Source of the DNA: a virus
DNA length: 38,021 nt
Strand: one strand, 5' to 3'
UHGV virus genome: UHGV-0070058
Shown: piece by piece, positions 1 through 20,480 of the stretch
Layout: each line of letters opens with the position of its first letter
Numbering within the stretch: position 1 is the stretch's first letter
The notes under the pieces: model-generated
Told to the model about the DNA's origin: nothing
The model's input: the letters and a program-made list of their open reading frames with translations, nothing else
Databases searched by the model: none
Translations under genes and position numbers: made by a program

Positions 1-34
1 TGGGCCGCAGGTTCGAATCCTGCAGGGCGCGCCA
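1..34 (+). tRNA. argU: 3' fragment of tRNA-Arg (T-arm GGTTCGAATCC, acceptor 3' strand AGGGCGC, discriminator, CCA); prophage attL side
   Basis: Sequence GGGCCGCAGGTTCGAATCCTGCAGGGCGCGCCA matches the 3' end of E. coli tRNA-Arg(UCU) from memory; an integrase gene lies immediately adjacent and is transcribed toward it. Confidence 0.6.
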
Positions 35-49
35 TTACAATTCAATCAG

Positions 50-1213
50 TTACGCCTTCTTTATATCCTCCATAATTCCAGAGTGGGACATATTTGGGAC
101 ATTATCACCAAAAATGTCGTCTATTTTCCTCGCATGCTCTGTCAAATGATTAGGCGCAAGGTGAGCATACCTACGAACCATTTCTATGGACTCCCATCCG
201 CCCATTTCCTGAAGCACTGATAATGGGACGCCTGACTGAATCAGCCAGCTTGCCCAGGTGTGTCTGAGGTCATGGAAACGGAAATCTTCAATTCCTGCAC
301 GACGACAAGCTGATAGCCATGATGTCTTGCTGTCGATGCGCATCTTCCTGACCGCAGGCGTTGATGTTCCATCTGCTCGCTTAGCCGCCTTGGTATGTAC
401 AAACACCCATTTGTGATGCTTGCCTATTTGATCACGCAACACTTTACAGGCGGTATCGTTCAGCGCCACACCAATGGCGCGGTTTGATTTGCTCTCTTCT
501 GGATTCACCCAGGCAACTCGTCGCTGCATGTCGATTTGTTGCCATTCCAGATTTATGATGTTCGACTTTCTCAGACCAGTTGCCAGCGCAAACTTGACGA
601 CAGATTTCAGTGGTTCGGGGCACTCATCAATAAGGCGTTTTGCTTCCTCCTTTTCCAGCCATCTGACTCGCTTGTTTCTGACCGCTGGTATCTTGATGAC
701 AGGCGCTTTTTCCAGCCACTTCCAGTCGCGTTCTGCAGCACGGAGAATGGCCTTTATCATGGCAAGATGCTTTGCCTTTGTCTGAGTTGATACTGGCTTT
801 GGTTCATAAACAGGCAGTTCTTTACCTTTCCTGATGGCGGCCTGAACTTTCTGTTTCCATATTTCTTTCGTCTTTCTGTTATGCATTCTGCTTACAGCAG
901 AGTAAATCTTTGCCTCCGAGATATCTTTAAGCCTTATACCCTCAAAATGTTCAAGCCAGAACTCAATCCGGCTTTTATCTGAATCGAGAGATTTTTTATC
1001 AGCTTTTTCCTCAAGCCATCTTAGGCAGGCCTCTTCAAAAGTGACATCAGGTAAATCCCCTAGCTTTTCTACTCGCCAGAGTTCTGCTTTTCGCTTGTCG
1101 TGCAACTCCTGAGCTTGCCGCTTGTCCTTTGTGCCAAGAGATTCCTTAATTCGTTTCCCGCCCGGGAGCGAATACGAGGCATACCATATTTCATTTCTGC
1201 GGAAGAGTGACAT
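50..1213 (-). CDS. int: Tyrosine site-specific integrase (lambda Int family, DLP12 IntD-like)
   Basis: 387-aa ORF; C-terminal catalytic-region motifs (HDLRHT...W...Y); adjacent to the tRNA 3' end; recognised as IntD-like. Confidence 0.95.
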
Positions 1214-1440
1214 TTTCTTTCCTCTGTTATGCCATCACCCGCGCTCACCTGGACAGTATGCAGCGGAGACTGAAGCGCCGCAATGCAGGCTTGCCGTGTT
1301 GTGAGGTAAGGAGATTTTGGCTTGGTTGGATCTTTACGTGTTGCCTGTAGGCGGCCTGTTCGTATCCAGTTGGTGGCGGTTGGTCTGGATATCTTAAGAA
1401 ACTGACAGGCTTCATCGAGTGTGAGGCTGTATGATTCCAT
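1069..1440 (-). CDS. xis: Excisionase (Xis, HTH DNA-binding)
   Basis: ATG at 1440 with GAGG Shine-Dalgarno ~9 nt upstream; N-terminal HTH-like segment [25 protein letters not shown]; 3' end overlaps int start by ~145 nt, so the C-terminal extent is uncertain. Confidence 0.7.
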
Positions 1441-1690
1441 GGTTACCTCTGCTTTTTGAACGCATGTCACGTAACTTCTTAATGTGTTCTGCCGTTTCGA
1501 TCTCTTCTGCTATCCGATCTGCATCAGCTTTATTCACAGGTTCAAAGTCATGATTAAAGCGGAACATGCTGGCGATACATGTTCTGCCTTTTCGGATGTA
1601 GTGAACTTTGTTGTGGGTAGAACGCAGGATTTTGCAGGGAGTGCCGTGGTGGTCGACGTACCAGGTGTTAGGAAAAATGATTCTGAACAT
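1412..1690 (-). CDS. Hypothetical small phage protein (int-exo accessory region)
   Basis: 92-aa ORF co-oriented with the early-left operon; no family recognised. Confidence 0.45.
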   Translation of the reverse strand: MFRIIFPNTWYVDHHGTPCKILRSTHNKVHYIRKGRTCIASMFRFNHDFEPVNKADADRIAEEIETAEHIKKLRDMRSKSRGNHGIIQPHTR

Positions 1691-1737
1691 TTTTACACCT
1701 CAGTTGGACGATGTTGAAATTTGCTGCTTTGAGGCCA

Positions 1738-1956
1738 TCACAGTCCCCATTGTTTGTTCTTAAGTTCGATCTCCTCCTGGCAACTTGCACAAGTCCGACA
1801 ACCCTGAACAGCCAGGCGTCTTCGCTCATCTATCGGATCGCCACACTCACAACAATGAGTTGCGGATACAGTCTGGTAGTTCAGACGACGCATTTTTATT
1901 GCTGTATTGCGCTGTAATTCTTCGATTTCTGATGCTGAATCAATGATGTCTGTCAT
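1738..1956 (-). CDS. TraR/DksA-family C4 zinc-finger protein (lambda Orf73-like)
   Basis: 72 aa; CxxC...17 aa...CxxC motif (CCECGDPIDERRRLAVQGCRTCASC) typical of the TraR/DksA C4-type zinc finger; same location class as lambda orf73. Confidence 0.8.
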   Translation of the reverse strand: MTDIIDSASEIEELQRNTAIKMRRLNYQTVSATHCCECGDPIDERRRLAVQGCRTCASCQEEIELKNKQWGL

Positions 1957-2054
1957 CTTCCATTAATCCCTGAATTGTTGGTTAATACGCTTGAGGATGA
2001 ATGCGAACACTAAAAAAGGAGCCTGTAGCTCCCTGATGATTTTGCTTTTCATGT

Positions 2055-2270
2055 TCACCGTTCCTTAAAGACGCCGTTTAACATGCCGATCGCCAGGCTT
2101 AAATGAGTCGGTGTGAATCCCATCAGCGTTACCGTTTCGCGGTGCTTCTTTAGTACGCTACGGCAAATGTCATCGACGTTTTTATCCGGAAACTGCTGTC
2201 TGGCTTTTTTGATTTCAGAATTAGCCTGACGGGCAATGCTGCGAAGGGCGTTTTCCTGCTGAGGTGTCAT
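2055..2270 (-). CDS. Hypothetical small phage protein
   Basis: ATG verified at 2268-2270 (minus); 71 aa; the ORF track's longer upstream extension begins with a non-ATG codon. Confidence 0.4.
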   Translation of the reverse strand: MTPQQENALRSIARQANSEIKKARQQFPDKNVDDICRSVLKKHRETVTLMGFTPTHLSLAIGMLNGVFKER

Positions 2271-2346
2271 TGAACAAGTCCCATGTCGGCAAGCATAAGC
2301 ACACAGAATATGAAGCCCGCTGCCAGAAAAATGCATTCCGTGGTTG

Positions 2347-2904
2347 TCATGCAGCCTCCCGACGGGCAAGAATCCTTGAGCCGAACGCCATCAACTCTCC
2401 ACGATCAACGGTCGTAAAGTGGCAGTGTGTACGGGGGTATGGGTGCCAGATAATGAGCATCGAGCCTTTATTATTTCCACTGACGGGTTTCTCAGTGAGT
2501 GGGTTAATAAATGCCAGTCGTCCAGCCGTGATGAATCTGACCTCACTGGCGGTTTGTATCGCTTCATGAAACCATCCGACAGATGTGTCAGCAGGCAATA
2601 ACATTACACATCCCACACTACTGAATTTGTTTTCAGTGGCTGCCTTTTTCACAAAAGGGGAAATATTGCTGTATGGTGGATTCAACCAGACATAACCAGA
2701 GGCATATCCCATTGCTTCAGGCCATGAAGTGGTTAATGTGTTCTGCTCCTGTGAGATAAAAAGCCGACATAGTCGGTTTTTTTCGCTGGCGGCAGCATCA
2801 AGTTGAAAAACGAACTCTGCATTAAGCGCAGCAAAAATCTCTGGTGGTGTGCGCCAGCTGTCGCGATGTTCGGCAGGAGTATTGCTTCCGGTGAAATCAG
2901 TCAT
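2347..2904 (-). CDS. Phage orphan DNA N6-adenine methyltransferase (Dam-like, NPPY motif)
   Basis: 185 aa; motif WLNPPYS (motif IV of amino-methyltransferases); GGGGG Shine-Dalgarno upstream of the ATG; no adjacent restriction endonuclease gene. Confidence 0.85.
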   Translation of the reverse strand: MTDFTGSNTPAEHRDSWRTPPEIFAALNAEFVFQLDAAASEKNRLCRLFISQEQNTLTTSWPEAMGYASGYVWLNPPYSNISPFVKKAATENKFSSVGCVMLLPADTSVGWFHEAIQTASEVRFITAGRLAFINPLTEKPVSGNNKGSMLIIWHPYPRTHCHFTTVDRGELMAFGSRILARREAA

Positions 2905-3058
2905 ACAGCCCCCGTTTATTATTTATCTCCTCAGCCAGCCGCTGTGCTTTCAGGGGATTTCGGATAACAGAAAGGCCGGGAAATACCCAGCCTCGCTTTG
3001 TAACGGAGTAGACGAAAGTGATCGTGCCTACCCGGATATTATCGTGAGGATGCTTCAT
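2897..3058 (-). CDS. Hypothetical small protein translationally coupled between exo and the methyltransferase
   Basis: Manually translated 53-55 codon ORF ([55 protein letters not shown]); its ATG overlaps the exo stop (ATGA) and its stop overlaps the methyltransferase start (ATGACTGA). Confidence 0.4.
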
Positions 3059-3735
3059 CGCCATTGCTCCCCAAATGCAAAACCAATTTCAGCCAGTGCC
3101 TCGTCCATTTTTTCGATGAACTCCGGCACCATCTCGTCAAAACTCGCCATGTACTTTTCATCCCGCTCAACCACGACATAATGCAGGCCTTCACGCTTCA
3201 TACGCGGGTCATAGTTGGCAAAGTACCAGGCATCTTTTCGCGTCACCCACATGCTGTACTGCACCTGGGCCATGTAAGCCGACTTTATGGCCTCGAAACC
3301 ACCGAGCCGGAACTTCATGAAATCCCGGGAGGTAAACGGGCATTTCAGCTCAAGGCCATTGCCGTCACTGCATAAACCATCGGGAGAGCAGGCGGTGCGC
3401 ATACTTTCGTCGCGATAGATGATCGGGGATTCAATAACATTTACGCCGGAAGTGAACTCAAACAGGGTTCTGGCGTCGTTCTCGTACTGTTTTCCCCAGG
3501 CCAGCGCTTTAGCGTTAACTTCCGGAGCCACACCGGTGCAAACCTCAGCCAGCAGGGTGTGGAAGTAGGACATTTTCATGTCAGGCCACTTCTTTCCTGA
3601 TCGGGGCTTTGCTATCACGTTGTGAACTTCTGAAGCGGTGATGACGCCGAGTCGTAATTTGTGCCATGCATCATCCCCCTGTTCGACAGCTCTCACGTCG
3701 ATCCCGGTACGCTGCAGGATAATGTCCGGTGTCAT
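3055..3735 (-). CDS. exo: Lambda exonuclease (Red-alpha, 5'-3' dsDNA exonuclease)
   Basis: 226-aa protein recognised as near-identical to lambda Exo ([40 protein letters not shown]...). Confidence 0.97.
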
Positions 3736-4517
3736 GCTGCCACCTTCTGCTCAGTGGCTTTCTGTTTCAGGAATCCAAGAGCTTTCACTGCTTCGGCCTG
3801 TGTCAGTTCTGACGATGCGCGAATGTCGCGGCGAAATATCTGGGAACAGAGCGGCAATAAGTCGTCATCCCATGTTTTATCCAGGGCGATCAGCAGAGTG
3901 TTAATCTCCTGCATGGTTTCATCGTTAACCGGAGTGATGTCGCGTTCTGGCTGACGTTCTGCAGTGTATGCAGTATTTTCGACAATGCGCTCGGCTTCAT
4001 CCTTGTCATAGATACCAGCAAATCCGAAGGCCAGACGGGCACACTGAATCATGGCTTTATGCCGTAACATCCGTTTGGGATGCGACTGCCACGGCCCGGT
4101 GATTTCTCTGCCTTCGCGGGTTTTGAATGGTTCGCGACGGCATTCATCCATCCATTCGGTAACGCAGATCGGATGATTACGGTCCTTGCGGTAAATCCGG
4201 CATGTACAGGATTCATTGTCCTGCTCAAAGTCCATGCCATCAAACTGCTGGTTTTCATTGATGATGCGGGACCAGCCATCAACGCCCACCACCGGAACGA
4301 TGCCGTTCTGCTTATCAGGGAAGGCGTAAATTTCTTTCGTCCACGGATTAAGGCCGTATTGGTTGGCGACGATCAGCAATGCGATGAACTGCGCATCGCT
4401 GGCATCGCCTTTAAATGCTGTCTGGCGAAGAGTGGTGATCAGTTCCTGTGGGTCGACAGAATCCATGCCGACACGTTCAGCCAGCTTCCCAGCCAGCGTT
4501 GCGAGTGCTGTACTCAT
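3732..4517 (-). CDS. bet: Bet (Red-beta) single-strand annealing protein
   Basis: 261-aa protein recognised as lambda Bet; overlaps the exo start as in lambda. Confidence 0.97.
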
Positions 4518-4522
4518 CCGTT

Positions 4523-4819
4523 TTATACCTCTGAATCAATATCAACCTGGTGGTGAGCAATGGTTTCAACCATGTACCGGATGTGTTCTGCCATGCGCTC
4601 CTGAAACTCAACATCGTCATCAAACGCACGGGTAATGGCTTTTTTGCTGGCCCCGTGGCGTTGCAAATGATCGATGCATAGCGATTCAAACAGGTGCTGG
4701 GGCAGGCCTTTTGCCATATCGTCTGCCAGTTCTGCCTCTTTCTCTTCACGGGCGATCTGCTGGTAGTGACGCGCCCAGCTCTGAGCCTCAAGACGATCCT
4801 GAATGTAATAAGCGTTCAT
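4523..4819 (-). CDS. gam: Gam, RecBCD inhibitor (short form)
   Basis: 98-aa protein recognised as lambda GamS ([21 protein letters not shown]...[10 protein letters not shown]). Confidence 0.95.
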
Positions 4820-4894
4820 GGCTGAACTCCTGAAAATGGCTGTGAAAATATCGCCCGCGAAATGCCAGGCTGATTAGGAAAACAGGAAAGGGGA

Positions 4895-5185
4895 TTAGTG
4901 ATTCAGGCCGTTACCGCGTCCGTCGAGAAAAACTTCCACGAGCAAATCACGGGTATAAGTGCGCTCGATGCCGCGATGCAGATATAGCCGTCCGCGTAAA
5001 TTAGCTGATGCAGTCCAGGTACCATCTTTGTGTTTGACCAGCATTCCTGGCATGACCGCGCTGCGATTAACGGTCTGCGTTCCGTAATGTTGATGAACCA
5101 TAAAAACTCCTGCCCGTAAGCTGGGCTGCTGAACATATAGAGACTTCTGCGCGTATTCAGGCGGTGGATGGCCGCCGGTTGTCAT
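4895..5185 (-). CDS. Hypothetical protein in the kil/cIII/N position of the early-left operon
   Basis: 96-aa ORF with GAGG Shine-Dalgarno upstream; first gene downstream of the presumed pL leader; not arginine-rich and not N-like. Confidence 0.45.
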
Positions 5186-5379
5186 AACTAAGCCGCCTCG
5201 TTGAAGCGACTAAGGTATGAAATGTTGAGTTGATTTCAGCTGGTCACACCGACGTTCACGCGTCCGTTTCACCCCTCGCACTCCCCGGAGCCTGCCGAAA
5301 TTCAAGCTGCGGATCTAAGCGGTCATCGCAACGGTGAATCAGGTGGTTGCCGTATCGTTGTGTTGTTGCGACATGGTAA

Positions 5380-5500
5380 TAATAGCCATTGCTATTGGTG
5401 GTATCAATACTTATAGCTATTGATTGATGTGTTTTGATATTAACTGTTTGATAGCAAAAAGAATTAATTTTGTGACTTGCATCGCATAGCGATAACTGAA
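5380..5500. promoter_or_regulatory. Putative OL/pL operator-promoter region
   Basis: AT-rich non-coding stretch at the left boundary of the immunity region containing ATTGCTATT-type motifs shared with the cI-cro intergenic region, plus palindromes TCAATActtatagcTATTGA and ATCGCATAGCGAT. Confidence 0.4.
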
Positions 5501-5542
5501 GGGAGGTTGTGGTGGTTTTTTGAACGGTGTGTGATGAGGGGA

Positions 5543-5574
5543 GGCAAAAGAAAACCCGGCACGACGGCCGGGGA
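5543..5574 (-). terminator. Rho-independent terminator downstream of the rex-slot gene
   Basis: On the minus strand, hairpin CCCGGCC-loop-GGCCGGG followed by a TTTTCTTTT tract, immediately 3' of the stop at 5577. Confidence 0.6.
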
Positions 5575-5576
5575 AA

Positions 5577-6440
5577 TCATTTCGCATCTACAATAAATAA
5601 CCTGTTTATCTGGCCTTTTTTAACAGTAGCCTTTGCGGTTATAGTGAATACTGCAGATGGATCACCTTTGGTTGATATATATGCACTAAGAGCTCTAATA
5701 TACGGGTTATTCTTCTTTCCTGCAGCTGGATCGCTAATTTCAGCAGTGATTCTCTTTTTTGAGTCATCACCATCTAAAATTATTTTAGCTGTCATATTTT
5801 GTGCATCAAATTCTGTAAGAAAAGCACGATACTCACGAAGACCGAGAACTTCATCATCATCAAGCCTATCAATTTCAGCTTTATCTCTCTCGTTAACTTT
5901 TAGAAGGCAGCCGTCAACATTTGTTGCAACACTTATCTGATCGCAAGTATTACCAATAGGTGATACTGCCTGCCTTACAGAGGGGCGAAGCTCTACAGCC
6001 ATTCGGTCAATCAAAGAGATCAACTTATCAATGGTTCCAGCATCCTTGTTTCCTAGTGCCTCTATGGCCTTTTCAAGTGACTGCTGCAAAGCTTTCATTT
6101 CATCTTTCTTGTTAGAATTTCTCGCAAAAATATATTGTAGTATTGCGCCAAGTATAGTTGCGGCGATCCCCGAGAACAACTGGTTCTGAGTGGCGAAGTT
6201 AAGAACTGCTTCAAGAGTAAAGCAGTTAGCTTTTGCTTCGCGTGCGTAAACCTTAACTTCCTGATAATTAATGTATTTACTATATTTTTGTGTAACAGAG
6301 AAAGAAGCTGCTGTTGAGAGAACTTTAGAAAAACCCTTTAGGGATTCTCCTAGGCAGTTCAAATCTATTTCATGATTTAAAGCATCTTTTCCGTCATACC
6401 TAAGAGAGATTTTTATATCCTGTAAAGCGTCACAATCCAT
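5577..6440 (-). CDS. Unknown membrane-anchored protein in the rexAB position; candidate prophage-encoded exclusion/abortive-infection factor
   Basis: 287-aa ORF, markedly AT-rich; 66 bp downstream of and co-oriented with the repressor gene; one hydrophobic segment [19 protein letters not shown] at about residue 100; no resemblance to RexA/RexB recognised. Confidence 0.6.
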
Positions 6441-6506
6441 AAATCGCTCTCGTCTAATTCTAATTAAATTTACTATCCCCTAAACGACTCATCAGCACAG
6501 TACTGA

Positions 6507-7199
6507 TTATCCATGTTTCCTGTACGTCTGGGGCATGCTCCCAATAACCTTACCGAAGATGAACACCCGGTTCATCTCGTCTTTCTCGATCGGGTCCCAC
6601 GGTGAGTAGCTCTTGTTATCAGAGATAACCAGCAGCTTATCCTTCATCATTTGCAGGCGCTTTACATGGGCGGTGTCGTCGTACAGAAACGCATAGATGC
6701 CATCACCGTCGAAAGATTTAACCGTGATATCAACGAACAGCAGATCACCTGGTTCGATCGTTCCTGACATGCTGTCACCACGCACGTTAATGATGCGGAT
6801 ATTTTCTGCCTTCCTACCATCGAACATGTGACGAGCATCGTCAAACGAGTACTCAACCGAGCGTAGAACTTCTACAAACTCACGGTTGATGACTCCCGGC
6901 CCGGCACTCACTTCTATATCAAGAACGTCAATCTTGAAGTATTTGGGATGGTTGGCAGTAGGCTTCCCTAATTGTTGACCGTCATTTCTCATCGGGCCTA
7001 TGCCTGATGAGAGCCACTCTGTTCGAACACCCAATGCATTAGCTATTTCAACAATTTTTGTTGAGCCGCGCGCGTTGCCGCTTGTCAGTCTCCAGATTGT
7101 GGGTTGAGCTACGCCAGACGCCTTTGCAAGAGCGCCTTGAGACATTCCAGATTGTTCCATCGCTAGGTTTAAGCGATCAGCAAGAGTTTCTTTTTTCAT
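6507..7199 (-). CDS. cI: CI-like prophage repressor (N-terminal XRE-type HTH + C-terminal S24 LexA-like autopeptidase)
   Basis: HTH segment QGALAKASGVAQPTIWRL; Ala-Gly cleavage site (VSAGPG); Ser (GDSMSG) and Lys (HVKRL) catalytic dyad. ATG at 7199 preferred; the track's 7235 start is a TTG codon. Possibly leaderless. Confidence 0.85.
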   Translation of the reverse strand: MKKETLADRLNLAMEQSGMSQGALAKASGVAQPTIWRLTSGNARGSTKIVEIANALGVRTEWLSSGIGPMRNDGQQLGKPTANHPKYFKIDVLDIEVSAGPGVINREFVEVLRSVEYSFDDARHMFDGRKAENIRIINVRGDSMSGTIEPGDLLFVDITVKSFDGDGIYAFLYDDTAHVKRLQMMKDKLLVISDNKSYSPWDPIEKDEMNRVFIFGKVIGSMPQTYRKHG

Positions 7200-7309
7200 A
7201 AGTTTTAATTTATACGCTTGCGTATTGATGGTCAAAACACGTTTTGCTATTGTTATGATTAATACGCATTGCTATTATTTATTCGTTGCAATACCAATAG
7301 GAATTGATA
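7200..7309. promoter_or_regulatory. Putative OR operator / pRM-pR divergent promoter region between cI and cro
   Basis: Divergent repressor/cro arrangement; palindromes ATACGCTTGCGTAT (7211-7224) and CAAAACACGTTTTG (7233-7246); repeated TTGCTATT motifs. Confidence 0.5.
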
Positions 7310-7537
7310 ATGACAAATCAAACCATTCAACTCGCAATCAGTATTACAGGTAGTCAAAAACGACTGGCAGATCTATGCGGTGTAGCCCAACCCACTGTTT
7401 GGCGTTGGCTACACGGTGGCGGAATTGATGCCCGCTATGTAATGAAAATTGTCTCAGCCACTGGTGGAAAGATTAAACCAGCAGATATTCGTCCCGACCT
7501 CGCACCATTGTTTAACGCGAGTAATTCTGCCGCCTAA
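7310..7537 (+). CDS. cro: Cro-like HTH repressor
   Basis: ATG at 7310 with AGGA Shine-Dalgarno 9 nt upstream; HTH segment QKRLADLCGVAQPTVWRWL; divergent from cI. Confidence 0.8.
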   Translation: MTNQTIQLAISITGSQKRLADLCGVAQPTVWRWLHGGGIDARYVMKIVSATGGKIKPADIRPDLAPLFNASNSAA

Positions 7538-7561
7538 ACTGCGGCGTTAACTGATAAGGCA

Positions 7562-8107
7562 ATGACTATGCAACCACTTACATACCAACAGACTAGCGGA
7601 TTTAGCCCGACTGCGGTGATAAATCGTTCTCAAACAAAACAAGCTCCAGGCCACGAAAAAATCCGTGATGCCGTCCGCGCCTGGTCGGCTGCAGATAATC
7701 AGGATGTTGTTGCCGCACTCATTGTGAATGAGTATCGGGAGCAGGGCGGCGGCACCATCGATTTCCCTGATGATGTCAGCCGTGCACGCCAGAAGCTGTT
7801 CCGCTTCCTCGATAACAAATTCGATTCTGAAAAATACCGAAATAACGTGCGTGAACTGACCCCGGCAATTCTGGCGGTACTACCGCTGGAATATCGCGGT
7901 TACCTGGTTGAGCAGGATAGCTTTATGGCTAGGTTGGCTGAAATGGAAAAGGAACTCAGTGAGGCAAAACAGGCTGTCATTCTCAACGCACCACGCCACC
8001 AGAAACTGAAGGAGATGAGTGAAGGCATTGTGTCGATGTTTCGAGTGGACCCGGATCTGGCTGGTCCATTGATGGCGATGGTCACCACCATGCTGGGGGC
8101 AATATGA
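7562..8107 (+). CDS. YdaT-family protein (DUF1019) occupying the cII position
   Basis: Segments EYREQGGG and LTPAILAVLPLEYRGY resemble Rac-prophage YdaT as recalled; follows a Cro-like gene as ydaS-ydaT does. Confidence 0.6.
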   Translation: MTMQPLTYQQTSGFSPTAVINRSQTKQAPGHEKIRDAVRAWSAADNQDVVAALIVNEYREQGGGTIDFPDDVSRARQKLFRFLDNKFDSEKYRNNVRELTPAILAVLPLEYRGYLVEQDSFMARLAEMEKELSEAKQAVILNAPRHQKLKEMSEGIVSMFRVDPDLAGPLMAMVTTMLGAI

Positions 8108-8193
8108 CAGGTTCAAAAATGGCGAAAGTCGGTCTGCGGGAACAGAACCGACTTTCAGGTGCAAATCGTAACACACTCATTGCGGGAGGAATT

Positions 8194-16999: not shown

Positions 17000-17377
17000 A
17001 TGCGTGATATTCAGATGGTTCTTGAGCGTTGGGGAGCGTGGGCGGCTAATAATCATGAAGATGTGACCTGGTCGTCCATTGCCGCCGGTTTTAAGGGATT
17101 AATTCCTTCAAAAGTAAAATCTCGCCCACAATGTTGTGACGATGACGCGATGATCATTTGCGGGTGCATGGCCCGTCTGAAAAAGAACAACAGCGATTTG
17201 CATGATTTATTGGTGGACTATTATGTCGGCGGCATGACTTTTATGGCGCTTGCACGTAAGCATGGGCGATCTGATTGTTGGGTTGGCAGGATGCTCCAGA
17301 AAGCTGAGGGCGTAGTGGAGGGTATGCTGATGGTGTTGGATCTCCGATTGGAGATGGATGCTGATTGTTCGAAATAA
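17000..17377 (+). CDS. Q: Late-gene antiterminator Q (QuuD/82-type)
   Basis: ATG at 17000 with GGAG Shine-Dalgarno; protein ([26 protein letters not shown]...) matches DLP12 QuuD; Cys-rich zinc-binding segment. Confidence 0.9.
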
Positions 17378-17475
17378 TTAAAGGAAAAGTTGCTGTCTGA
17401 TTGTCATTAGTCTAACATTTTAAATGTTGGAATCGCAACGTAGTTATTATCATATAACAGCTTGTTTCCTGATTT
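17378..17475 (+). promoter_or_regulatory. Putative late promoter pR' / qut region
   Basis: Positional: non-coding stretch directly downstream of Q and upstream of a strong terminator; promoter hexamers not confidently assigned. Confidence 0.4.
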
Positions 17476-17505
17476 AGCCAGCCTCCCCAAAGGCTGGTTT
17501 TTTTC
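17476..17505 (+). terminator. tR'-like rho-independent terminator
   Basis: Hairpin CCAGCCT-CCCCAA-AGGCTGG followed by TTTTTTT. Confidence 0.75.
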
Positions 17506-17532
17506 TAATAAGTATTATTTCGGGTAGGGATT

Positions 17533-18057
17533 TTATTGTTTAACCCATAATAATTCATTGACATTGAATCCCAACTTTTGAGCGGTTCGCGCATAGTCTG
17601 CTTTTACTTTATCTGGAATAGTTGGGGTCCTTGCCAGAATCCATAGGTATTCTCTGTTCGGACCACTGACAAGAGCATACTTATACTCATCATCCAGTTT
17701 GATTACATTATAGCCACCATAGAAGGGGCCAAAAAACGAAACCTTCAACGCTGCAGTTTTAGTATCTCCAGTAAAGTATGCTTTACCTTCGCTCTCGCTC
17801 CATTTATTTTTCGTTGGATCGTATCCACGGTTAAGTACACGAATCCCTCCGTCGTTCCGTTTTCCATAAGTAGCGCTGACCTGTTCCAGACCACGTTCGA
17901 ACCGGTTCTCGAGGCGAGCTATTTCATACCATTTTCCGAGGTAGCGGTTGGCGTCAAAATTTGTAATCGGCTGCACACCTTTAGGTGGTGTCGGGGCCTT
18001 ACATGCTATAAGAGTGAAAGAGAGTGCAATGCCAGTCAACACAGGCCATAACTTCAT
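17533..18057 (-). CDS. blc: Outer-membrane lipoprotein lipocalin (Blc-like)
   Basis: 174 aa; lipobox LIAC; motifs NFDANRYLGKWYEIAR and KVSFFGPFYGGYNVI match E. coli Blc as recalled. Confidence 0.85.
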   Translation of the reverse strand: MKLWPVLTGIALSFTLIACKAPTPPKGVQPITNFDANRYLGKWYEIARLENRFERGLEQVSATYGKRNDGGIRVLNRGYDPTKNKWSESEGKAYFTGDTKTAALKVSFFGPFYGGYNVIKLDDEYKYALVSGPNREYLWILARTPTIPDKVKADYARTAQKLGFNVNELLWVKQ

Positions 18058-18249
18058 AATAAATCCTGTACTTTTGATAGTTGAGAGTAAGTATGAAAGA
18101 TAGATGATTACGACCGATCACTTAAAGAACTTTCATACTATATTAGGAATAGTCCATAACAGAAAAATTGTCAGTGATGACGCCAGAAAGGCAATTTATT
18201 CCGTGCACTACACAGTTTATGTGTTAATGAATTAGTCAAGGGGGAGAAT

Positions 18250-19209
18250 ATGATAAAAAAACCTGTGATTGGAATCAGCGGTTGTTTGGCCGGTTCTGCT
18301 GTTCGTTTTGATGGTGGTCACAAAAGAGCTGACTTTTTAATGGACAAATTAGTGGAATGGGTAACATTCAGACCAGTATGTCCGGAAATGGCTATAGGGC
18401 TGCCAGTTCCGCGTCCTGCTCTACGTCTTGTGCGCTCGACGCAAGGAAATATACGGATGTGTTTCAGCTACGACCAGAATGAGGATGTGACAGAGAGAAT
18501 GACAGAGTTTAGTCGTTCTTATATGGACAAATTAAAGGATGTATCGGGGTTTGTGGTTTGTGCTAAATCTCCCAGCTGTGGCATGGAGCGCGTGCGTGTC
18601 TATGATGAAAATGGTAATCGAGGTCGTAAAGATGGAGTGGGACTATTTACGAGCACTTTGATGGAAAAGTTTTCCTGGCTACCGGTTGAAGAGGATGGGC
18701 GATTACATGATCCAGTGCTTCGTGAGAATTTTGTTGAAAGAGTTTTTGCTTTGCATGAGCTCAATCACCTTTACAAGGAGAAATTATCAAGAAGAGAGTT
18801 ATTAGCTTTTCATAGTCGTTATAAGCTTCAGTTGTTGGCGCATAGTCAGGCAGGCTATAAAGATATGGGACCATTTGTGGCTGCAATACACGAGTGGGCG
18901 GACCTTGAATCATACTTTGAGGTGTATCGTGATAAGCTGATGGCGATTCTCAGAAAACCTGCATCACGTAAAAATCACACGAATGTGCTGATGCATATAC
19001 AGGGGTATTTTAGTAACTACTTAAGTACACGCCAGCGTAAAGAGTTGAGTGAGGTTATACTTAACTATCGTTCTGGCACATTGCCTCTTCTTGCGCCGTT
19101 GACTCTGCTGAAGCATTATCTGGGTGAGTATCCTAATGATTACTTGCTTACACAGAATTACTTCGATCCCTATCCGGACGAACTGGCTCTAAGACTGATG
19201 GTAAATTAA
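18250..19209 (+). CDS. DUF523/DUF1722 (YbgA-like) two-domain protein
   Basis: 319 aa; N-terminal Cys-containing DUF523-like region (GISGCLAG...CPE...SPSCG), C-terminal YbgA-like region; GGGAG Shine-Dalgarno. Confidence 0.6.
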   Translation: MIKKPVIGISGCLAGSAVRFDGGHKRADFLMDKLVEWVTFRPVCPEMAIGLPVPRPALRLVRSTQGNIRMCFSYDQNEDVTERMTEFSRSYMDKLKDVSGFVVCAKSPSCGMERVRVYDENGNRGRKDGVGLFTSTLMEKFSWLPVEEDGRLHDPVLRENFVERVFALHELNHLYKEKLSRRELLAFHSRYKLQLLAHSQAGYKDMGPFVAAIHEWADLESYFEVYRDKLMAILRKPASRKNHTNVLMHIQGYFSNYLSTRQRKELSEVILNYRSGTLPLLAPLTLLKHYLGEYPNDYLLTQNYFDPYPDELALRLMVN

Positions 19210-19560
19210 TTGTATGCAATATCATCCAAAAGGATGAGTTCCTGCATGCAGGATATTTACAATCGTAAAAACTACACTATGATACCCAGAGTGTCAGTTT
19301 GTATAAAAACTCTGTTTACGCTGAAGAAACCATTGAGATGCAACTTAAAGTTGGTAAACATGTCAGTCAAAATATATAATATTATGATTCCACGCAGCTA
19401 TATATAATATAACAGATTGGTTTAATAATTTGTCTTTGTGAGTTAAATACATAATTTTATACTTGTGATGCAATGAGATTTTCCTTATTGTTGAACTGGC
19501 GAATATTGATTTTCCACCTATACTTACCTGGTGTAACCCCAATGATATCAGGTGGATAAT

Positions 19561-20291
19561 ATGCCATACATATGTTCTATCATTTTGGTGTTGAACTCGT
19601 TTGATGTCCGAATTGGTAAAGAAGATATTTTGTTTAAAAAAGGAAGTGCTGTTCTCATTGATTACAATTTAAAAGATTTTTTTCACCAAATATAGATCAT
19701 GTAATGATCGTAGATGTTGAAGAGAAAACAGTTAATGATTTCTTTAAAAGCAACACACTCTCACCTTTTTCTGTAAGAAGGTTTTATCCGGCATACTTGA
19801 TGGTGGAATGTGAAGATTTTTCATTGTTAAAGAACTTGATTGCATGCTTGAATTGTGATGGCAGAACTGTGGATTTTGTTAGAAATCAAATATCACTTGC
19901 ATGTCTTGCTATCTTATCTTCAGAGAAAATAGTGCAAAGTTTTTTATTTGGATGTCTTAATAGTTTAGGAAGTAAAGTTAAGGCTATTATTCACACGGAT
20001 ATATCTGCAGCATGGAGACTTTGTGATATATCTTCAAGACTGTATCTGAGTGAAAGTCTGTTAAAAAGAAAATTAAAGCACGAAGGCTTATCATTTAGTA
20101 AGTTAATTCTTGAAGAGCGAATGGTGATGGCGGAAAGGTTATTAAGCTACAATTTATATTCTGTTGGAAAAGTTGCTGAGATATGCGGTTATGAAAACAC
20201 GTCATATTTTGTAAGTGTTTTCAGAAGATATTTTGGTGTTCCTCCCCATCAATATTCATCAAGATTTTTTTTAGAAAAAGAAATGATGTAA
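19561..20291 (+). pseudogene. appY: AppY-like AraC-family regulator, split by a frameshift near 19662-19695
   Basis: N-terminal 45 codons (MPYICSIILVLNSFDVRIGKEDILFKKGSAVLIDYNLKDFFHQI, ATG 19561) resemble the AppY N-terminus; the C-terminal AraC HTH domain (19704-20291) is in a different frame; the frames overlap around a T7 homopolymer (19675-19681). Confidence 0.6.
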
Positions 20292-20353
20292 CGTGATGCG
20301 TTTTAATGATTTTGTGATTTTCGTATTTGATAATTGTATGATGCTTTCAGCTA

Positions 20354-20383
20354 CGCCAGAATAATCGCTGGCGTTTTTCTTTT
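20354..20383 (+). terminator. Rho-independent terminator downstream of the appY-like gene
   Basis: Hairpin CGCCAG-loop-CTGGCG followed by TTTTTCTTTTT. Confidence 0.55.
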
Positions 20384-20480
20384 TGAATAGATGTTCAAGC
20401 CTTACGCTAATGTAACTTCTATACCTTTCCCTCTTCGTTCCGAACCGTGTACACCATCCGTTATTTGCGGAGGTGAGGCT

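Follow-up and report, generated by a model that had tools for sequence, protein, structure and literature searches.

What occupies the interval between xis and exo in the viral genome UHGV-0070058, whose 38,021 nt are here called the window, and why does an orphan methyltransferase gene stand within it? A reading of the letters made without database searches (the sequence-only reading) had described the interval as a host-takeover/anti-restriction module. Our analysis indicates that it is the exo-xis accessory region in the early-left operon of a lambda-like E. coli prophage, in which orf63 has been swapped for a DNA adenine methyltransferase gene whose proposed role is to protect progeny DNA. 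The earlier description thus stands for the Orf73/TraR part, the orphan methyltransferase and the hotspot; however, the module is not uncharted, being the known lambdoid exo-xis region. The gene on which the argument turns is the following.

2347-2904, minus strand: orphan phage N6-adenine DNA methyltransferase, 185 aa (PF05869, E 2.3e-56; TIGR01712)

In a Pfam profile search the protein scored 190.5 bits against PF05869 (cut-off 28.1), and it reached 165.6 bits against the TIGR01712 equivalog (cut-off 97.05). The best match reported by PADLOC was its orphan-methyltransferase model (E 8e-32). The NPPY motif occupies residues 75-78 and is invariant in 36 homologues, as are about 50 other positions, while nine copies of the gene differ at five sites only and contain neither stops nor frameshifts. 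On account of this invariance and intactness the methyltransferase looks functional, and the NPPY-bearing N6-adenine enzyme of 185 aa recognized in the sequence-only reading is confirmed by PF05869, TIGR01712 and the invariant motif. The AlphaFold2 (AF2) model (predicted local distance difference test score, pLDDT, 81) has a compact methyltransferase fold, with N6-adenine methyltransferases as its best matches and without a separate target-recognition domain in the 185 residues. The label "Dam-family", also given earlier, is right for Pfam PF05869 and wrong for the E. coli/T4 Dam family (PF02086, the D12 class), to which the protein gave no Pfam match at E <= 0.01. Foldseek comparison of the model with E. 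coli Dam returned weak partial matches (template modelling score, TM, 0.22-0.32, E >= 0.02).

Pairwise alignment delimits a foreign cassette of 551 bp at 2351-2901, as homology to lambda and phage ev243 stops at 2902 and resumes at 2350. The cassette stands in place of orf63 (DUF1382) and is codon-exact at the start and stop junctions. One break falls at the methyltransferase start codon, within the final codons of orf60a; the other falls at its stop codon, where GCATGA provides the ATG of the next open reading frame (ORF). The cassette equals one ORF, and no cognate endonuclease gene adjoins it as would be expected of a type II restriction-modification system. The foreign segment holds the methyltransferase ORF alone, flanked by orf60a and orf61, in agreement with the earlier statement that a partner endonuclease is lacking. 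An overlap of 8 nt (ATGACTGA, 2897-2904) joins the orf60a stop to the methyltransferase start. Therefore, the ATGA overlaps once noted at both ends of the ~54-codon ORF, orf60a, hold at the exo junction (3055-3058) and not on the methyltransferase side. The native Enterobacter orthologue, like the gene here, terminates in a ...REAA stop, and a 4-nt overlap links it to its own downstream gene; for this reason the cassette seems to travel with its ATGA junction.

Of 5,426 complete E. coli genomes, 244 carry the methyltransferase cassette beside DUF1317 (orf60a), and so do 8 of 80 viral contigs; PhiR30_1 was the only phage record with this arrangement among 50,697. Most other E. coli genomes having the region carry orf63. 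In addition, a DndB-like allele follows orf60a in 282 of the 5,426 genomes (a 354-aa DGQHR protein; Pfam DndB, E 3e-46), and a queuine-transglycosylase-like allele does so in 95 (a 250-aa protein; phrog_887, named queuine tRNA-ribosyltransferase, E 4e-99). The phrog_887 protein is presumably similar to the DpdA enzymes, by which 7-deazaguanines are introduced into phage DNA.

L084 2940-4004, L087 2241-2993 and L085 2579-3331: alternative alleles in the slot after orf60a, DndB-like or phrog_887, in place of orf63 or the methyltransferase

Alternative genes therefore recur at the same place in related prophages and E. coli genomes, as the term accessory hotspot had implied. DNA modification is linked to three of the four alleles of the slot, which gives some support, as an association, to a restriction-related role. 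A bolder reading, offered tentatively and as a whole rather doubtful, is that the slot after orf60a may be a dedicated exchangeable place for DNA-modification genes, where a methyltransferase, DpdA-like or DndB-like gene takes the place of orf63. The modification would be switched on with the Red genes, a coupled 27-codon membrane micro-ORF would lie downstream, and the annotated N-terminus of orf61 in lambda and Shiga toxin (Stx) phages would be wrong.

Prophages of Enterobacter, Klebsiella and Atlantibacter carry orthologues of the methyltransferase (74-79% identity) in an equivalent niche, downstream of recombination genes and upstream of TraR, DUF4222, xis and int. A DUF1317 gene immediately precedes the orthologue in Atlantibacter, the only such adjacency seen outside E. 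coli; a 54-codon ORF before the Enterobacter methyltransferase was considered as DUF1317 and ruled out. Meanwhile, a shortened methyltransferase copy (67% of the length, 98.4% identical) is present at 536209-536575 of E. coli BL21(DE3) (NC_012971.2). The shortened copy in E. coli B strains adjoins the replication protein P gene, and therefore the cassette also occurs on the rightward side of defective prophages. Some Enterobacter homologues (P0126, P0136, P0144 and others) are 250-284 aa long and have an additional match to the PF00145 cytosine-C5 methylases, which suggests fusion with, or read-through into, a second methylase gene.

The setting of the cassette is given by the following genes and candidate genes.

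50-1213, minus strand: int, the first gene of the window
1069-1440, minus strand: xis, excisionase, 123 aa (phrog_2907, E 5.9e-46; PF12728 HTH_17)
1412-1690, minus strand: DUF4222 gene, 92 aa, with a conserved core of about 79 aa (PF13973, E 1.9e-19)
1738-1956, minus strand: lambda Orf73 orthologue, a TraR-type C4 zinc finger of 72 aa (PF01258 zf-dskA_traR, E 2.8e-9)
1963-2058, minus strand: 31-codon ORF, with a GTG at 2058 overlapping the orf61 stop and an ATG at 2052
2055-2270, minus strand: orf61, 71 aa, intact (phrog_303, E 4.7e-36)
2267-2350, minus strand: candidate 27-codon hydrophobic micro-ORF, MTTTECIFLAAGFIFCVLMLADMGLVQ
2897-3058, minus strand: orf60a, DUF1317, 53 aa (PF07026, E 2.8e-33)
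3055-3735, minus strand: exo, lambda exonuclease, 226 aa (PF09588 YqaJ, E 1.9e-29), the upstream boundary of the region
3732-4517, minus strand: bet, early-left arm
4523-4819, minus strand: gam, early-left arm
about 4895-5185, minus strand: kil, early-left arm

The arm thus reads int-xis-...-exo-bet-gam-kil with the whole set on the minus strand, and the Exo protein is near-identical to that of lambda. On that strand the order is exo, orf60a, methyltransferase, 27-codon ORF, orf61, 31-codon ORF, orf73, DUF4222 gene, xis and int. The five ORFs that the sequence-only reading had placed between xis and exo are all intact, on the minus strand and at the positions it gave; the 27-codon and 31-codon ORFs were absent from it, as were two terminator-like hairpins located within ORFs, and the 27-codon ORF is absent from the annotation as well. 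The conserved exo-xis block has been published as orf60a-orf63-orf61-orf73-ea22, and its genes rank with the first to be transcribed from pL after infection or induction (PMC8614690). The region influences lysogenisation and induction (PMC8614690; PMC3824215). Of the block members, orf60a, orf61 and orf73 are present here, and orf63 and ea22 are replaced by the methyltransferase gene and the DUF4222 gene, respectively; both replacements recur in related prophages. By way of correction to the sequence-only reading, xis extends to 1440 and shares 29 nt with the end of the DUF4222 gene; its overlap with the start of int is 145 nt. These overlaps, taken from the ORF table, are unusually long by comparison with lambda, where the overlap is only 23 nt. 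An apparent 3' end of a tRNA gene (…GGTTCGAATCCTGCAGGGCGCGCCA) occupies window positions 1-40, where ARAGORN found no complete tRNA; we take it to be argU, the DLP12 attachment site.

With respect to its target, the methyltransferase is 42-45% identical to Dam of T1-like phages and 46.6% identical to an Stx-phage enzyme, presumably M.EcoVT2Dam. M.EcoVT2Dam is stated to target GATC (PMC6602927), and by analogy the target here would most likely be GATC. Expression of the gene would depend on a hairpin that precedes it.

2972-2994, minus strand: GC-rich hairpin inside orf60a, upstream of the methyltransferase (terminator scan; 9-bp stem with 6 GC pairs)

This hairpin is identical to lambda 31265-31287 and has a folding energy of -18 kcal/mol; in the DUF1317 gene of Atlantibacter it is not conserved. 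In pKD46, tL3 has been described as the native terminator that follows exo (PMC8402550), and the orf60a hairpin is probably lambda tL3. Because the methyltransferase gene lies downstream of the hairpin and within the repressed early-left operon, it would be silent in the lysogen, and the enzyme would be made only once leftward transcription passes the hairpin. It would then methylate adenine at N6, with S-adenosylmethionine as donor, in replicating phage DNA as well as in host DNA. Lambda DNA is only about 50% Dam-methylated at packaging (PMC3299994). Since host Dam leaves about half of the sites unmodified, a delayed-early phage enzyme could complete the modification, and progeny DNA would be packaged fully modified, against about half-modified by host Dam alone. 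The benefit would most likely be protection from nucleases of the next host that cut unmodified sites, which is the weakest step of the proposal. Anti-restriction by the methyltransferase is a plausible hypothesis. With the gene presumably off in the lysogen and any GATC signal masked by host Dam, the methylome comparison of lysogen and cured strain that the sequence-only reading had suggested would likely be uninformative.

Several points weigh against this proposal. The E. coli host has a Dam of its own, which makes it hard to say what would be gained by further methylation of GATC, and an identity of 46.6% does not fix the specificity of the enzyme. The presence of DNA-modification genes in the hotspot is an association and not a shown function. 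A sequence search of the PDB found no solved structure of the methyltransferase family, and the nearest structures are RNA adenine methyltransferases, namely cap-specific CAPAM (TM 0.53-0.59) and the tRNA enzyme TrmM. In addition, the T-run of the orf60a hairpin is weak in the terminator scan, and no N antiterminator gene was found between the repressor gene (6507-7235) and kil.

Among the alternatives, the least improbable, though still unlikely, is that the target is other than GATC, or relaxed, and that the enzyme shields phage DNA from a wider range of restriction enzymes than mere imitation of Dam would. The retention of the gene by a phage whose host is Dam-proficient would be accounted for by a non-redundant target. 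The want of a separate target-recognition domain in 185 residues and the identity of 42-47% to relatives of assigned specificity are consistent with such a target; however, the one family member for which a specificity could be documented here targets GATC (PMC6602927). Non-specific phage methyltransferases of the Hia5 type carry DPPY and FxGxG motifs (PMC3299994). No link was found between those enzymes and the PF05869 family, so they lend this alternative no help, and they were set aside as relatives.

Somewhat less probable is a role mainly in regulation or repair, in which full GATC methylation would blind MutH mismatch repair and favour Red recombination of diverged sequences, or would affect promoters that are sensitive to Dam, or how stable lysogeny is. 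MutH does not act on fully methylated GATC, and recombination genes (exo/bet, RecT or Erf) stand just upstream of the methyltransferase gene in every locus examined. Host Dam is reported to be essential for stable lysogeny of Stx phage 933W in work cited in PMC3342100. However, closeness to recombination genes is the standard early-left layout, and the DndB-like and transglycosylase-like cassettes of the same slot indicate DNA modification generally, not GATC or mismatch repair. Completed modification of progeny DNA is the preferred reading, and the explanation as a whole is considered likely.

The Orf73 orthologue was identified in the sequence-only reading as a TraR/DksA-like zinc finger and a TraR homologue of the Orf73 type, and this is sound by close orthology. 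It scores 37.3 bits against PF01258 (cut-off 24.9), shares 61 of 71 residues (86%) with its closest relative, lambda Orf73, and aligns over its full length to the F TraR chains 5w1s and 6n57, the alignment giving C35, C38, C56 and C59 as zinc ligands. It keeps the DxxDxA motif (D3-I-I-D6-S-A8) and the pair R46-R47, and it did not reach the cut-off of TIGR02419 (53.9 against 59.7 bits). In RNA polymerase, the DxxDxA motif and the Arg pair touch the region of the active site and the rim of the secondary channel, and their substitution weakens lambda Orf73, as the Gourse laboratory has reported. Lambda Orf73 itself binds RNA polymerase at the secondary channel and alters initiation; promoters of rRNA and ribosomal proteins are inhibited by it, the host grows more slowly and the burst size rises (PMC9239242). 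Binding of RNA polymerase by the present protein is predicted from its orthology.

The stretch between orf73 and xis is variable among relatives, with ea22, ea8.5, orf55 or the DUF4222 gene in differing combinations. Foldseek returned no significant match for the DUF4222 protein. It is improbable, at roughly the level of a long shot, that DUF4222 is a second RNA polymerase factor beside Orf73, a small beta-barrel docking on the beta-subunit lobe like the Tudor domains of UvrD, PcrA and CarD.

Three small ORFs of the interval had been left unassigned. Profile searches identify two of them as lambda Orf60a and Orf61, which have published phenotypes, and the third as DUF4222. Orf60a and Orf61 are described as pro-lytic and as having predicted DNA-binding folds (PMC8614690). 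Orf60a is identical to its lambda counterpart at 48 of 50 residues, and its start was placed at 3058, overlapping the exo stop; a start at 3064 was rejected, as 3058 matches the lambda annotation and a 52-aa Atlantibacter homologue. Across the lambdoid phages of E. coli the orf60a and orf61 genes hardly vary (95-100% nucleotide identity). Polymorphisms were counted in 40 haplotypes out of 88 related loci, and the synonymous ones number 13 of 16 in orf61 (P 3.6e-6), 17 of 32 in orf60a (P 0.0016) and 13 of 24 in orf73. This bias to synonymous sites indicates that the small ORFs are more than chance, and signals of purifying selection are present on the small genes.

The start of orf61 deserves attention. 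An extra A in reference lambda (A7, against A6 in the window and in most relatives) causes a +1 frameshift (L003 3340-3525 against window 2055-2270), and therefore the lambda annotation joins an out-of-frame upstream stretch to a truncated gene; lambda Orf61 has previously been remarked as truncated (PMC8614690). An N-terminal extension (93 aa in Stx-phage records; an MRETRY... start in lambda) was rejected, as its frame has one synonymous change to four nonsynonymous ones, with third positions untouched. In variants whose N-terminus differs, the start is at the same Met, and the curated records of phages 21 and 434 agree with the 71-aa start. Taken together, the same-Met variants, a 72-aa Enterobacter relative and the polymorphism counts favour the 71-aa start, which suggests an error both in the 93-aa annotation of Stx phages and in the orf61 start of lambda. 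The Enterobacter relative is a weak match, and the diverged matches obtained as distant Orf61 homologues were mostly double-frameshift artefacts. That relative excepted, the family seems to be limited to lambdoid phages of the E. coli type. In many genomes RefSeq calls Orf61 "cell division protein ZapA", a name that looks unfounded, with no Pfam or NCBIfam match at E <= 0.01.

The 27-codon ORF is closely fitted between its neighbours: its ATG shares an ATGA with the methyltransferase stop, a second ATGA joins its own stop to the orf61 ATG, and in lambda the same ORF follows orf63 in the same manner. Seven of its 11 substitutions are synonymous, against a neutral expectation of 24% (P 0.0065, from small numbers and with three frames inspected), and the common ones are all at third positions; with one of five synonymous in the frame of the orf61 extension, the counts speak for the micro-ORF frame over that of the extension. 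Its product has a grand average of hydropathy (GRAVY) of 1.62. One haplotype contains a stop codon and two contain indels, and the ORF is absent where the transglycosylase-like cassette is present. Taken together, these data are no more than suggestive of a coding gene.

The 31-codon ORF ends 7 nt ahead of the orf73 start. Its lambda counterpart lies at the same place, has an ATG start and differs by 2 aa, and the ORF is annotated in the curated records of phages 21 and 434. A 31-aa peptide in the exo-xis region is mentioned in PMC8614690 as reported by ribosome profiling. An Enterobacter prophage has a 30-codon counterpart just upstream of TraR (71% nucleotide identity; L092 5742-5834). A coding signal is not clear from its polymorphisms, of which 5 are synonymous and 8 are nonsynonymous (P 0.16). 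A further hairpin lies inside this ORF.

2016-2034, minus strand: terminator-like hairpin followed by TTTTTT, inside the 31-codon ORF (terminator scan)

It is identical to lambda 30673-30691, and the Enterobacter counterpart has an open frame and a hairpin with a T-run at the same place, with a different stem sequence. The hairpin may be a terminator embedded in a translated micro-ORF upstream of orf73, and part of the conservation of the ORF may come from the terminator and the orf73 ribosome-binding site.

The small ORFs had also been suggested as anti-defence candidates, for which we found no supporting evidence. That a product of orf60a, orf61, the DUF4222 gene or the micro-ORFs inhibits a host defence system is quite unlikely. 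Such a role would suit small early proteins encoded in a variable accessory region near Gam, a known nuclease inhibitor; however, PADLOC gave no match for them and no known anti-defence family matched, the orf60a and orf61 genes are near-invariant, unlike fast-evolving counter-defence genes, and the published phenotypes concern the lysis-lysogeny decision (PMC8614690). Finally, action of the methyltransferase on RNA instead of DNA, at which its resemblance to CAPAM and TrmM hints, is very improbable, as no structure of the PF05869 family was found for comparison, the protein scores above the curated cut-off of a phage DNA N6-adenine methyltransferase equivalog (TIGR01712), and its Stx-phage relative is related to M.EcoVT2Dam, a documented GATC DNA methyltransferase.

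Further observations were made between the repressor gene and kil. A 287-aa gene (5577-6440, minus strand; phrog_5147) with a weak PADLOC match to PDC-S42 (E 1.5e-4) lies directly downstream of the repressor gene, where lambda has rexAB and PhiR30_1 has a different gene; it is a candidate prophage-expressed defence gene. A strong terminator-like hairpin follows it at 5555-5572. Within window 5186-5600, a promoter-like site (5407-5379, minus strand) is followed by an unannotated leader of roughly 390 nt, conserved at 81-96% in a set of lambda-like phages, and a 94-nt piece of it shows 76% identity to Salmonella P22-like phages. The Rfam scan of window 1-9000 gave no match, and the 190-nt leader after the candidate left promoter folds no better than shuffles (z -0.07). 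The 390-nt leader could be an RNA-based antitermination element.

The exo-xis region is already known, and what is added here is a recurrent orphan-methyltransferase allele, a codon-exact cargo slot, a candidate 27-codon ORF and hairpins inside ORFs; current understanding is not overturned by any of this. The region has an influence on the choice between lysis and lysogeny and on how Shiga-toxin phages are induced. The finding that about 11% of complete E. coli genomes (244 + 282 + 95 of 5,426) have a DNA-modification gene in exchange for orf63 provides a concrete handle on the purpose of that position, and the alleles constitute natural isogenic pairs for testing phage-encoded methylation in host range and restriction escape. 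Meanwhile, the micro-ORF and the hairpins inside ORFs bear on lambda gene annotation and on the gating of xis and int expression.

Compared with known systems, the methyltransferase resembles E. coli Dam and T4 Dam (PF02086) in being an orphan N6-adenine DNA methyltransferase of the same broad fold; those enzymes are GATC-specific and belong to a family other than PF05869. With M.EcoVT2Dam (Stx phage VT2-Sakai/933W) and the T1-like Dam proteins it shares PF05869, the small single-domain orphan form and NPPY, whereas the Stx-phage gene is located in the nin region beside ninE, in the rightward operon, and the present one in the leftward exo-xis region. The zinc-finger protein has the C4 finger, DxxDxA and the RR pair in common with lambda Orf73 and F TraR, at 72 against 73 aa, and differs from lambda Orf73 at 10 of 71 residues, mostly C-terminal ones. 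The interval as a whole occupies the same place between exo and xis, on the same early-left strand, as the exo-xis region does in lambda and in Stx phages, with orf60a, orf61, the 31-codon ORF and orf73 in the same order at 95-99% nucleotide identity. In contrast, lambda (NC_001416) has orf63 where the methyltransferase stands here, and ea22, ea8.5 and orf55 where the DUF4222 gene stands. Phage PhiR30_1 (PV340558.1), whose head and tail genes are of lambda type, is mosaic relative to the window, with no long match for 5573-6505, 9812-15326 and 17360-20465; over window 1200-3800, however, it is 99.0% identical and has the same genes in the same order, the methyltransferase included.

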